This document shows positions 688 through 33,769 of a stretch of 37,114 nucleotides of DNA, in pieces. The notes beneath the pieces are model-generated. The model was not told the origin of the DNA. It did not search any database and saw nothing but the letters and a program-made list of their open reading frames with translations. The stretch is from a virus. Location of the stretch: the UHGV virus genome UHGV-0042115, one strand, 5' to 3'. The position numbers and the translations under genes are program-made. Within the stretch, counting starts at the first letter, position 1, and each line of letters opens with the position of its first letter.

Positions 688-1743
688 TTATGACGGGGTA
701 ATGCCAACCGCTGCCGCCACTTTGTCGCCACTTGGCAGCGTTGCCAGAGGATTGAAACGGAGCGCCGTTTCCAGATGATCCGGTGCCAGATGTGCGTAAC
801 GCATCGTCATTTTTATATCGTGATGTCCGAGAATTTTTTGTAAGGCCAGGATGTTTCCACCCGACATCATGAAGTGCGCCGCAAACGTATGGCGCAGAAC
901 GTGTGTCAGTTGACCGCGAGGGAGCACGATAGACGTTTTTTCCATCACGGATAAAAATTGAAAATAGCAGTCTGTGAAGAAATTGAACCCATCAAGCGCC
1001 ATGATCTCTTCGTAAAGCTCTTTACTGATAGGGATGCTTCTGTTTTTCTTCCCCTTCGTTCTTACAAAGGTAATTCGGTATTTGGTCACCTGTGAGCGGG
1101 TAAGATTTACGGCTTCACGCCAGCGTGCGCCTGTGCTTAAGCATATCTTGACTACCAGTGCCAGAATTGGGTCCTGACGTTTGCAATCAGCCAGTAATTC
1201 AACAATCTGCTCATGGGTAAGCCATGCCATCTCTTTTTCTGCGATGGTGAATTTTCGCATGTTCTCCAGTGGGTTCGGATACGACCATTCGCCCAGGCGG
1301 GATAGTTCGCTAAAAACACTACTTAGATAGCTTTGCTCCAGGTTAATGGTGACCGGGCTTGCTCCTTTCTTCCATTTCTCGCTGAAGTAGATCTCTCCTG
1401 TCAGGCGTTTATCTCGATAGTGGGCAAACATTTTAGATGTGAGATCGGTTGCAAGGGGATTGCCCAGAGCGTCAACCATTAACAGCAGTTTGTCATAGAC
1501 ATGCTGGCCAGCTGTCAGAGATTTACCATGTAGTTTGAACCATAGTTCAACCACGTCTTTCAGTGTTCGACGATCCACTGATTCGCCCAGCTAGGGCTTT
1601 GCTTCGCTTTCTTCCATCGTGTGACGCTCAAAAGCCAGAGCTTCGCCTTTGGTAGCGAATTGTTTACGCACACGACGTCCGCTACGTCCGGCGGGGTAAC
1701 ATTCGCAAAGCCATTTTCCTGTGGTGAGTTTTCGTACTGCCAT
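688..1743 (-). pseudogene. int: Tyrosine integrase (P2/186 family) interrupted by in-frame TAG at codon 51
   Basis: Minus-strand ATG at 1743 gives MAVRKLTTGKWLCECYPAGRSGRRVRKQFATKGEALAFERHTMEESEAKP then TAG (1593..1591), then continues in frame as LGESVDRRTLKDV... to the C-terminal catalytic region (HxxR...Y: LRHTFAAHF...MRYAHLAP). Confidence 0.7.
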
Positions 1744-1767
1744 AAAAAAGCCCTCATATCAGAGGGC
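1744..1767 (-). terminator. Intrinsic-terminator-like hairpin (GCCCTC/GAGGGC stem, 6-nt loop) followed by U6 on the minus strand, ending 1 nt before the int ATG
   Basis: Stem 1750-1755 / 1762-1767; plus-strand A6 at 1744-1749 is U6 on the minus-strand transcript. Confidence 0.45.
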
Positions 1768-1834
1768 TAAATCTAACTGTATGTTTGAACAGTAGTCAAT
1801 GTATGATTTTATTCAATATATACATTGAAGAATA

Positions 1835-2386
1835 TTAAATTCTGTTTTGCAGACCTGATATAAAAATATTATAACTGTGTGAAAGATTTCCAGTGATTCT
1901 AAGGCACTTGCCTATTGCTCTTGATCCAGATACCTTTTGATAAGCGTATTTTGTCAGAGATACCAATTCTTGAGCTGCGTTACCAAGTCGATCAGGGTTA
2001 CGATATTTACTATTATTTTGAGATCGGGAAAGCCGCGGGATTCCTAAAGCTTCCTCGACAGACAATAAATCTCCAAGATACCAGCTTTCAAGCTCATGGC
2101 ATGCAATGCGTATTAAAACATCTGTTTTACCAGCCTTTGAGCAAATATCAGACAGTCTAGATTTAATTGTTGGACCATCTCCGCTATCTTTATCTCTAAT
2201 GACTACAAAAATAGTATCAGGAGTCATCCAGTTTTTTAATTTTTTCTCCAAGTTCTTTTCTAGATCCTGTTTACCTTCAAATACAATATATCGAGTGTCT
2301 GCATCTGCCGGAAGTAATCGAGGCAGTAATCCTTTCAGCATTTCTGCTGCAGATAATTCTTCTAGAAAGAAAGCATAAGTTGTCAT
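1835..2386 (-). CDS. Small Toprim-like protein (DUF4276-like by motif recollection), partner of the upstream ATPase
   Basis: 183 aa; motifs IVFEGKQD and VVIRDKDSGDG resemble Toprim E...DxD; start overlaps the ATPase stop (ATGA); AT-rich. Confidence 0.55.
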   Translation of the reverse strand: MTTYAFFLEELSAAEMLKGLLPRLLPADADTRYIVFEGKQDLEKNLEKKLKNWMTPDTIFVVIRDKDSGDGPTIKSRLSDICSKAGKTDVLIRIACHELESWYLGDLLSVEEALGIPRLSRSQNNSKYRNPDRLGNAAQELVSLTKYAYQKVSGSRAIGKCLRITGNLSHSYNIFISGLQNRI

Positions 2387-3582
2387 TGCGGATCAACTCC
2401 TGGGAAAAATCCTTGTTTCCATAAATATCCCATTTTATCTCCATCATTCATATAGGCTACAAGTTGAGGATCATCTGAAGCCCTGAAAGCACGAGTATAT
2501 CCATTGGTTTTAGTTAACCAGAAAACCTCATCAATATTTACTGCATTCAAGAAGTCTGGGGAATGTGTAGAAACAAATACTTGCCCTCCTCTCTGTGTAT
2601 AGGCTCTGAACTCCTCTGCTAATTCTACTAGCAGTTTTGGATATAGTTGATTTTCCGGCTCTTCGACACATAATAATGGATGAGGCTCAGGATCGTGTAA
2701 TTGTACTAAATATGCAAACATTTTTAATGTTCCATCAGATACATATCTATCGATAAAGGGATCTGCAAAGCTTCCATCTTGAAAACCTAATAATAAACGA
2801 CCATCTTGAGTGCTTATCGGTTTAACATCAGAAACTCCGGGAACTCTATGTTTCATTGAGTCAATAATTTTAGAAAATATTTCAGGATAATTATCGTGGA
2901 TGTTTCGTGCAACTAACTGTAAATTATCGCCAGTTGCAGAAAGATGGTCTTCATATCCAATAGCATCTTTTGATCCCCTAGCTGCATTGATATGAAAGTC
3001 GGAAACATGCCAATTTTCAATTAACTGCCTGAAAGCACTGGCTGCTTTAAATTTACTAAATTGACCTAACCCTTTGATTGCTAAAACATCATCAGAATCA
3101 AGCTGCTGAGTCTCTCTGTTTAGTTCTTCATCTTGTTTACTGAAATCATCTTCATTAACAATCGCAGTACCATGGCCTCTGGAGAAGTCCAAAAAGTGAT
3201 AAGGCGAGCCAAAGGAACCTCTTTTATATCTCAAGATTTCTCTTTCAACATAAACTTTTTTCCTAGAATCTTCTTTAAGTTTTAGAATATAAGTAACTAA
3301 TCGTTCATACCCACTTATTTCAATACGAAATTTTACTTCAATCTCTATTGTCCGGTCGGTAACATCCACTCCACGGCTCAGAAGTTCTTCAAAACCTCCT
3401 CTTTTCTGAACAGCACTTCTCACATTGAAAGTAAGACAATCTTTCAGAAAGCCAAACACATCAAAAAGAGTAGTTTTTCCTACGCCGTTTGCCCCGACAA
3501 TAACACAAAATTTGGGGATATTGTTCATCTCAAGATCTTGGAACGACTTGAAATTTTTTAATTTTATGGCTTCAATTAACAT
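2383..3582 (-). CDS. ABC-type ATPase (OLD/AAA_15/AAA_21-like architecture)
   Basis: 399 aa; N-terminal Walker A GANGVGKTT, C-terminal Walker B LLCVEEPE and STHSP H-loop separated by ~250 aa; ATG 8 nt after the repressor stop with SD-like AGGA in between. Confidence 0.75.
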   Translation of the reverse strand: MLIEAIKLKNFKSFQDLEMNNIPKFCVIVGANGVGKTTLFDVFGFLKDCLTFNVRSAVQKRGGFEELLSRGVDVTDRTIEIEVKFRIEISGYERLVTYILKLKEDSRKKVYVEREILRYKRGSFGSPYHFLDFSRGHGTAIVNEDDFSKQDEELNRETQQLDSDDVLAIKGLGQFSKFKAASAFRQLIENWHVSDFHINAARGSKDAIGYEDHLSATGDNLQLVARNIHDNYPEIFSKIIDSMKHRVPGVSDVKPISTQDGRLLLGFQDGSFADPFIDRYVSDGTLKMFAYLVQLHDPEPHPLLCVEEPENQLYPKLLVELAEEFRAYTQRGGQVFVSTHSPDFLNAVNIDEVFWLTKTNGYTRAFRASDDPQLVAYMNDGDKMGYLWKQGFFPGVDPQ

Positions 3583-3590
3583 AATGTTCC

Positions 3591-4484
3591 TTAATTGCTT
3601 TTATTGATGCTGGAAATGAATAAATAAACTCTAGCTACAAAATTGATATCAGAAAAACCACATTCAAAGCTATTTATGGAGGATGATACTTTTATCACCT
3701 TCTTAGGTAGTCTTGTAATATGCCGAATTGAATAGGTTTCATCGATATTGATGAGCCAGTGTCCATCCAATACATCAGTAATGTTTTGATCACAAATGTA
3801 TGTCATCAACCCGTCTTGAATGACAATTGGTGCTGAAAGATTAGCAGGTAAAAATGACGTATCGAAAATATATGAACCACACTCAACCATTTTTCCTGCA
3901 TTGAGATGAAATTTAGGCAGCTCTTTTACCAATGTTGTGAGAGAACTGTGCTTGCTGCCTTGCCCAGTGGCTAGCCATAAAAGAGAATTTCCTGTTTCCA
4001 ACGAGCATTTTATGATCCAATCAGCTGGGAAAGTGTCTCGTAAATATCTGTTTGCCATGGTGCTTTTAGATACATTCAAATGGTCGGCAAGTTCTTGTCT
4101 TGTTTTGAAGCCATACGCTTTCATTAGCCGGTCTATTGCATCACGTCCGCCTGAATCCAAATTCAGCAAGTTCCCAATAGGGTTCTCTTGATTATTGATT
4201 TGGGGAACATACTGAACCTTTGGTGCAGTTGCCTTTGACATGACCGATGCCTCTGTATTCTGAGGGAATGGTACGCCTTTTCCGAATGAGAGCCATTCGA
4301 TAGATGCACCCGTTTCAATTGCACACTGAATTACCCAGTCAGCAGGAAATACGTCACGCATCCAGCGCGTACCCATAGTGCTTGCAGATACGTTGAACTG
4401 CTCGCATAGAGCTTGCCTTGTCTTGAATCCATACGCCTCAAGCATGCGCGTTATGACTGCTTGTCCTCCGTTTTTGAAATTCAT
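3591..4484 (-). CDS. 186 CI-type immunity repressor with tandemly duplicated N-terminal DNA-binding domain
   Basis: 297 aa; two copies of the ...AYGFKTRQ.L...NVS.STM..R..RD.FPADW.I.C..ETG......WL..G.G module (aa 9-70 and 116-176) then a C-terminal domain; divergent from the apl/cII genes. Confidence 0.7.
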   Translation of the reverse strand: MNFKNGGQAVITRMLEAYGFKTRQALCEQFNVSASTMGTRWMRDVFPADWVIQCAIETGASIEWLSFGKGVPFPQNTEASVMSKATAPKVQYVPQINNQENPIGNLLNLDSGGRDAIDRLMKAYGFKTRQELADHLNVSKSTMANRYLRDTFPADWIIKCSLETGNSLLWLATGQGSKHSSLTTLVKELPKFHLNAGKMVECGSYIFDTSFLPANLSAPIVIQDGLMTYICDQNITDVLDGHWLINIDETYSIRHITRLPKKVIKVSSSINSFECGFSDINFVARVYLFISSINKSN

Positions 4485-33611: not shown

Positions 33612-33625
33612 AACAAAAAACCCAT
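33612..33625. other. attR core (AACAAAAAACCCAT)
   Basis: Identical to 603-616. Confidence 0.6.
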
Positions 33626-33657
33626 CAACCTTGAACCGAAATGGCGGGGTTGATGGG
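33612..33657 (-). terminator. Probable ybjL intrinsic terminator (10-bp stem CCCATCAACC / GGTTGATGGG, then U6 on the minus strand), overlapping the att core
   Basis: Stem 33621-33630 / 33648-33657, 17-nt loop; A6 at 33615-33620 on plus is U6 on the ybjL transcript. Confidence 0.4.
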
Positions 33658-33769
33658 CTCCACAAAATGGGGACATCAAAGAAAAGCAGTGGCACTAATT
33701 AAGACTGATGCCCTGCGGAAAAGTTCTGCGGTTGTGCAAAAAAATTTCATTTTCAGGGCAACTTCAGTT

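Follow-up and report, generated by a model that had tools for sequence, protein, structure and literature searches.

An ABC ATPase–DUF4276 gene pair of HEC-01 type as putative defence cargo between cI and int of a 186-like Escherichia coli prophage

The cI–int locus and its gene junctions

The window analysed here is the whole stretch of 37,114 nucleotides catalogued as virus genome UHGV-0042115, which is a segment of an Escherichia coli chromosome, 100% identical to that of strain MS 85-1 (NZ_CP146650), and in which a 186-like (Peduoviridae) prophage of ~33 kb lies between rcdA and ybjL. The leftward lysogeny operon of this prophage begins with the repressor gene cI, and between cI and the integrase gene int it carries two cargo genes, one encoding an ATP-binding cassette (ABC) ATPase and the other a small DUF4276 protein with a Toprim fold. 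The pair is almost certainly a member of HEC-01, that is, Hma-embedded candidate 01, where Hma stands for helicase–methylase–ATPase.

A preliminary description of the locus, made from the letters of the sequence, had placed a pair of AT-rich, same-strand genes between the repressor and int, and both open reading frames (ORFs) were confirmed (Table 1). Their GC content of 36-37% compares with 46-55% in the flanks, and the matches of both proteins to Pfam and PADLOC hidden Markov models (HMMs) indicated that these ORFs do not arise by chance. The ATPase start codon (ATG at 3582) was found eight nucleotides beyond the cI stop codon (TAA at 3593-3591), as had been described, with an AAGGA Shine-Dalgarno sequence (3592-3588) overlapping that stop codon and a spacer too short for a terminator or a promoter. 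The ATGA overlap reported between the cargo genes was likewise located, at 2386-2383, where four nucleotides are shared by the ATPase stop and the DUF4276 start, and from this overlap the two genes are predicted to be translationally coupled. CI itself is composed of two tandem Phage_CI_repr helix-turn-helix (HTH) domains followed by Phage_CI_C.

Table 1. Features of the cI–int locus and of a second locus in the same prophage, in positions of the window
Feature	Position	Strand	Basis or remark
int, tyrosine integrase	688-1743	-	Interrupted by a stop codon
Spacer from DUF4276 stop to int ATG, 91 nt	1744-1834	-	Pattern scan, RNA fold, backbone homology
Exchangeable cassette (cargo genes and cI 3' tail)	1810-3645	.	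blastn of the window against loci L002, L011, L013, L014 and L015
DUF4276 protein, 183 aa, Toprim-fold putative nuclease of HEC-01	1835-2386	-	ORF and HMM matches
ABC ATPase, 399 aa, ATPase component of HEC-01	2383-3582	-	ORF and HMM matches
Spacer from cI stop to ATPase ATG, 8 nt, GGAACATT	3583-3590	-	Direct sequence reading
CI repressor, 297 aa	3591-4484	-	Pfam PF07022 (two stretches, 3e-59) and PF16452
ShosT-like ORF, 191 aa	11319-11894	+	ShosT 3.7e-14; not annotated in RefSeq NZ_CP146650
DprA-like protein, 324 aa	11884-12858	+	ShosA 2.8e-70, PF02481

Transcription of the ATPase and DUF4276 genes from the cI promoter would fit the gene junctions. A pattern scan identified no terminator-like site at the cI/ATPase junction or between the genes, and a search for an internal cargo promoter returned six promoter-like sites against 11.0±3.4 in shuffled sequence, none of them well placed. 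The spacer ahead of int contains a terminator-like hairpin, AGCCCTC-TGATAT-GAGGGCT (1768-1749) followed by T5, which has a predicted folding energy of -25.8 kcal/mol (z -3.4) and abuts the int start codon, whilst a promoter-like TTGACT-18-TAGATT (1799-1770, minus strand) lies just upstream of it. Blastn comparisons placed this hairpin in the backbone of the relatives compared from E. coli and Klebsiella, and nothing corresponding to it was detected in the Yersinia prophage L003; the hairpin thus lies outside the cassette, and in the lysogen it may restrain expression of int. Scans with Rfam models and for tRNA genes found no RNA element in the cargo locus, the sole match being the small RNA gene rybB at 33612-33690 (RF00110, 105 bits).

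Identity of the two proteins

The ATPase matched the Pfam families AAA_21 (2e-31) and AAA_15, and its entire length (residues 1-399) aligned with positions 1-395 of the 395 in the PADLOC HEC-01 model PDLC04144 (1.6e-209, 694 bits); a further HEC-01 model, PDLC04182, matched at 1.8e-124. The Walker A, Walker B and STHSP motifs on which the protein had initially been called a 399-aa ABC-type ATPase were all present, comprising Walker A GANGVGKT (30-37), the signature S282-D-G-T, Walker B LLCVEEPE and the H-loop STHSP (H340). Across 43 homologues, residues G30, K36, E307, E310 and H340 were invariant, as was the S-D-G-T signature, and the catalytic E308 of the Walker B/catalytic E307-E308 pair was conserved in at least 90%. 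This constitutes the complete motif set of the SMC/Rad50/OLD ABC clade (Walker A, signature, Walker B with its Glu, and H-loop), and the ATPase is therefore expected to be able to bind ATP, dimerise head to head and hydrolyse. Its fold is SMC/Rad50-head-like without a coiled coil, and a strictly conserved loop at residues ~195-222, modelled with low confidence, may represent a candidate element for sensing or for docking of the nuclease.

The small protein matched Pfam DUF4276 (PF14103) at 2e-9, scoring 38.3 bits where the cut-off is 30.2, and was matched over its full length by the HEC-01 model PDLC04143 (6.9e-75, 249 bits) and additionally by PDLC04202 (3.5e-34). Sequence searches against PDB chains yielded nothing useful for the ATPase (top match 1.3e-3, to a retron ATPase) and no match below 0.09 for either the DUF4276 protein or the DUF4276 profile, such that a fold comparison was needed. 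This comparison bore out the Toprim fold previously suggested for the small protein, revealing a three-layer alpha/beta arrangement with four parallel strands. In 52 homologues, E9, D41, R64, D65, D67, E100 and S101 were invariant and E10 was conserved in at least 90%, with E9 and E10 lying in FFLEE just after strand 1 and D65-K-D67 forming the DxD after strand 3, which is the Toprim pattern. Thus the DxD had been assigned correctly from the outset, whereas the Glu of IVFEGKQD, E37, is variable (E/Q/R/H) and the catalytic Glu instead lies in FFLEE. The same catalytic pattern has been reported for DUF4276, which was there called Toprim (PMC12065111). The protein resembles OLD class 2 far more than it does AriB.

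Payne et al. (bioRxiv 10.1101/2024.01.29.577857), who defined HEC-01, described it as a pairing of an ABC ATPase with a TOPRIM protein that lies within Hma systems. BLASTP comparison with the type pair of Pseudomonas agarici NCPPB 2472, for which the sequences were taken from Table S2 of that study (WP_060782633.1 and WP_060782632.1), gave 63% identity over 400 aa for the ATPase and 44% over 178 aa for the DUF4276 protein. With both HMM and BLASTP results identifying the pair as an orthologue of PADLOC HEC-01, the initial statement that it could be assigned to no named family does not stand; nor does the term "undescribed", as HEC-01 had already been catalogued, although "poorly described" was fair. 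The Hma embedding is not found here, where the pair lies in the cI–int operon, but such embedding, although it led to the discovery of HEC-01, is not required for detection by PADLOC. The A and B labels in PADLOC-DB are swapped relative to those of the paper, in that PDLC04143 ('HEC-01A') matches the DUF4276 protein and PDLC04144 ('HEC-01B') the ATPase.

Exchangeable cargo in E. coli and homologues beyond

Of the 5426 complete E. coli genomes, 1134 carried a prophage with this int family but only six the ATPase–DUF4276 pair, all six being among the 1134, and relatives carried other cargo in the cI–int slot, which agrees with the original view that the pair is accessory cargo and not core. Approximately ten slot loci were read by hand. 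The slot of phage vB_EcoM-813R9, ST12468 and E7-1N7 contains PD-Lambda-1, a validated defence system, that of STEC005 the candidate pair PDC-M18A/B, and that of MS20659 a KAP-type P-loop nucleoside triphosphatase (NTPase), whilst the slot of BL21(DE3) is nearly empty, with only a 63-aa ORF. In Klebsiella phage 4LV2017 (locus L012, 1083-1850) the slot encodes a 349-aa protein without a Pfam or PADLOC match, a cargo candidate, and then has ~770 bp without an annotated gene.

The borders of the exchanged segment were traced with blastn. Homology of the backbone on the int side ended at 1806-1810 in the five relatives compared (Table 1) and at 1804 in L012, and on the cI side homology with L002 resumed at 3645, with the last ~18 cI codons (3591-3645) belonging to the swapped cassette. 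In an alignment with eight relatives, the C-terminal tail of CI was found to vary with the cargo between carriers. The cI–int slot of enterobacterial 186-like prophages is hence a hotspot at which defence cargo is swapped, and one of the junctions falls within the 3' terminal part of cI. The HEC-01 pair itself occupies the same slot behind a 189-aa CI in Yersinia and a 187-aa CI in Dickeya, and behind a 202-aa CI in a 186-like contig from IMG/VR, of which the ATPase is 93% identical. The tandem-HTH CI of the window (297 aa) has counterparts in STEC005 (293 aa) and 4LV2017 (313 aa), most relatives having a single-HTH CI of 187-202 aa. In a decayed prophage next to ybjL-ybjM-grxA (L009/L010, 5871-9151), only apl-like, cI, ATPase and DUF4276 genes together with integrase fragments are left, which suggests that a repressor–cargo unit was kept after the loss of other phage parts.

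Homologues extend well beyond these prophages, and HEC-01 is common in environmental genomes, the retrieved clusters numbering more than 8000 for the ATPase and more than 2300 for DUF4276. The ATPase is ~70% identical in Cyanobacteria, Electrothrix, Actinobacteria and Kiritimatiellia, and is also found in Desulfobulbales. In 12 of 12 further loci outside E. coli, representing ~8 distinct contexts, the two genes occurred together, with the ATPase first and the stop and start codons overlapping or adjacent; a same-strand upstream gene was present in nine of nine distinct contexts, at a distance of 8-115 nt in eight of these. One copy, 72% identical, is embedded in a Hma-type system, flanked by DUF1156 and DUF499 genes with an SNF2 helicase alongside, and other homologous pairs outside phages are located near secG or next to an integrase. 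Same-strand pairs were also observed in rows of housekeeping genes without adjacent mobility genes, between hemC and cobA/hemD or immediately behind gyrB, in Electrothrix (L007, 8001-9766; L020, 6001-7835) and a cyanobacterium (L019, 6001-7748). Nonsynonymous divergence (dN) ranged from 0.08 to 0.25 in the ATPase and from 0.23 to 0.47 in DUF4276, and synonymous divergence (dS) was saturated even between E. coli and Yersinia; these values indicate strong purifying selection on both genes, the ATPase being the slower-evolving.

The prophage is bounded at both ends by a 14-nt direct repeat, AACAAAAAACCCAT (603-616 and 33612-33625), which marks the attachment site and coincides with the 3' end of rybB; integration has taken place at rybB, next to rcdA. 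In this copy int is inactivated by a TGG to TAG change at codon 51 (1593-1591), whereas it is intact in other carriers of the module. A ShosTA-like pair was also noted in the classical P2 hotspot between the replication endonuclease and portal genes (Table 1), so that together with the cI–int pair the prophage carries two separate defence loci.

Proposed working, alternatives and comparison with known systems

We favour, with moderate confidence, a reading of the pair as a HEC-01 orthologue in which an ATP-dependent sensor controls a Toprim nuclease, carried as exchangeable cI–int cargo of a 186-like prophage. A defensive role, directed at phages or at other mobile elements, is likely, whilst the proposed mechanism, control of the nuclease by the sensor, could equally prove right or wrong. 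In the lysogen, both proteins would be produced from the cI (pL-type) transcript, in the manner of rexAB with lambda cI, and would form a complex in which an ATPase dimer restrains or guides the nuclease. If the pair works as OLD, Gabija and PARIS do, an infecting phage or another mobile element would supply a signal that shifts the state of the ATPase and licenses the nuclease; the latter would then cut nucleic acid and so stop the invader, perhaps at the expense of the host cell. The substrate is somewhat more likely to be DNA, since the small protein is much closer to OLD class 2 than to the tRNA-cutting AriB and the ATPase resembles the DNA-clamping heads of SMC/Rad50; the signal sensed is probably conserved, as opposed to a phage protein that evolves fast, given that the ATPase is the slower of the two proteins to evolve. 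A defensive role is also supported by the context, in that the slot of sister prophages holds the validated PD-Lambda-1, the candidate PDC-M18 or the KAP NTPase.

Several observations weigh against this reading. In E. coli K-12, the type HEC-01 failed to protect against classic coliphages or a BASEL subset (bioRxiv 10.1101/2024.01.29.577857). An ATPase identity of ~70% across phyla is atypical for a sensor engaged in an arms race, and homologues occur alone between hemC and cobA/hemD or directly after gyrB, a placement which would suit a selfish cassette too. Amongst 2.9 million IMG/VR contigs only four matches were obtained, by a two-peptide-pattern scan that may miss divergent copies; in deposited phage genomes megablast found no close copy of the cargo, and tblastn only two distant matches (34% and 25%). 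Co-transcription with cI is predicted from the spacing of the genes. With regard to protection, a later study reported that E. coli B was shielded from at least one of the phages T4, T5 and T7 by a HEC-01 from cold seeps, where HEC-01 ranks in the top 12 system types, and the functional data for HEC-01 are contradictory between published tests.

Four other explanations were considered. The pair could act in the manner of PARIS, with an ATPase oligomer sequestering the Toprim protein until a phage anti-restriction protein triggers its ATP-dependent release, whereupon host tRNA rather than DNA would be cut and the infection aborted; the architecture is shared, but given how far the small protein stands from AriB we regard this as unlikely. 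Rather doubtful, in our estimation, is a selfish, promoter-less addiction or stabilisation cassette of two genes that settles in constitutively transcribed operons (cI, Hma, housekeeping) and is not mainly anti-phage. The same-strand upstream gene in every distinct context, mostly at short distance, would be expected of such a cassette, as would the insertions at hemC–cobA/hemD and gyrB, the retention of the pair with cI and the apl-like gene in the decayed prophage and the failure of the type HEC-01 to protect; set against these are the one HEC-01 that did protect against phage, the validated or candidate defence genes that otherwise fill the cI–int slot and the finding of no toxin/antitoxin signature. 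The selfish-cassette and anti-phage roles are, moreover, compatible with each other.

A third proposal, which we hold to be similarly doubtful, is that this ultra-conserved HEC-01 subfamily is a promoter-less cassette, settling in constitutively transcribed operons, that monitors an invariant signal and is not a conventional sensor of phage proteins. It arises from the ~70% identity of the ATPase between E. coli and cyanobacteria or Desulfobulbales, its slower evolution relative to the nuclease and the saturated dS; a DNA end or structure, or the loss of a host function, may be the signal. By far the least probable is an accessory role in the phage life cycle, be it in integration, excision, replication or recombination. 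The position between cI and int would accommodate such a role, as would an SMC/Rad50-like ATPase and the occurrence of Toprim domains in primases and topoisomerases; yet more than 99% of related prophages lack the pair (six versus 1134 genomes), unrelated genes take its place in sister phages and the pair also exists outside phages, a distribution by which a life-cycle function is largely excluded.

The kinship with Old, PARIS and Gabija that had been proposed from the architecture was upheld, in that all have an ABC ATPase together with a Toprim-fold protein, though the pair was assigned to none of these systems. In PARIS, AriB is a 305-aa DUF4435 protein that cuts tRNA, whereas the protein here is a 183-aa DUF4276 member closer to OLD, with no match to DUF4435 (PF14491) or to the PADLOC AriB models at E<=0.01. 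OLD (P2 Old and the class 2 Burkholderia OLD) and GajA carry the ATPase and the Toprim as a single polypeptide fusion, unlike the two separate proteins of this locus, and Gabija also needs the UvrD-like helicase GajB; OLD class 1 and Gabija were accordingly rejected on the two separate ORFs and the lack of a helicase between cI and int. AbiL was likewise rejected, as the AbiLi model matched the ATPase at only 2.5e-26 and the small protein gave no match to RloB (PF13707).

The methylation-associated defence system (MADS) of Pseudomonas aeruginosa reportedly comprises eight mad genes in all. Its Mad3–Mad4 components resemble the present pair in combining an AAA_15/21 ABC ATPase with a DUF4276 Toprim protein (PMC11464382, PMC12065111), and DUF4276-type partners have been linked to Mad3–Mad4 in the PARIS and Menshen papers, the homologue Mad4 being part of MADS. 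MADS differs in having further mad genes besides these two, none of which is present at the cI–int pair, and it was rejected on a mad3 HMM match to the ATPase of only 2.9e-25 (versus 1.6e-209 for HEC-01), no mad4 match at E<=0.01 and neighbours that are cI and int.

The type HEC-01 has the same organisation as the pair described here, a ~395-aa ABC ATPase gene followed by an overlapping gene for a ~190-aa DUF4276 Toprim protein, but sits in a Hma system, whereas this pair resides in the cI–int lysogeny operon carried by a native E. coli prophage. An E. coli-native copy in a defined and probably constitutive cI-operon context would make a better object for testing than a heterologous Pseudomonas system. 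The arrangement is also like that of lambda rexAB with cI, where defence cargo lies in the transcription unit of the repressor and so is expressed in the lysogen. A cI–int hotspot has been described for P2-related Vibrio K139-like phages (Rousset et al. 2022, PMC9122126), with which the present slot shares its variable contents whilst differing in its enterobacterial 186-like lineage and its cargo family, and the published K139-type hotspot is thereby extended to E. coli, Klebsiella, Yersinia and Dickeya.

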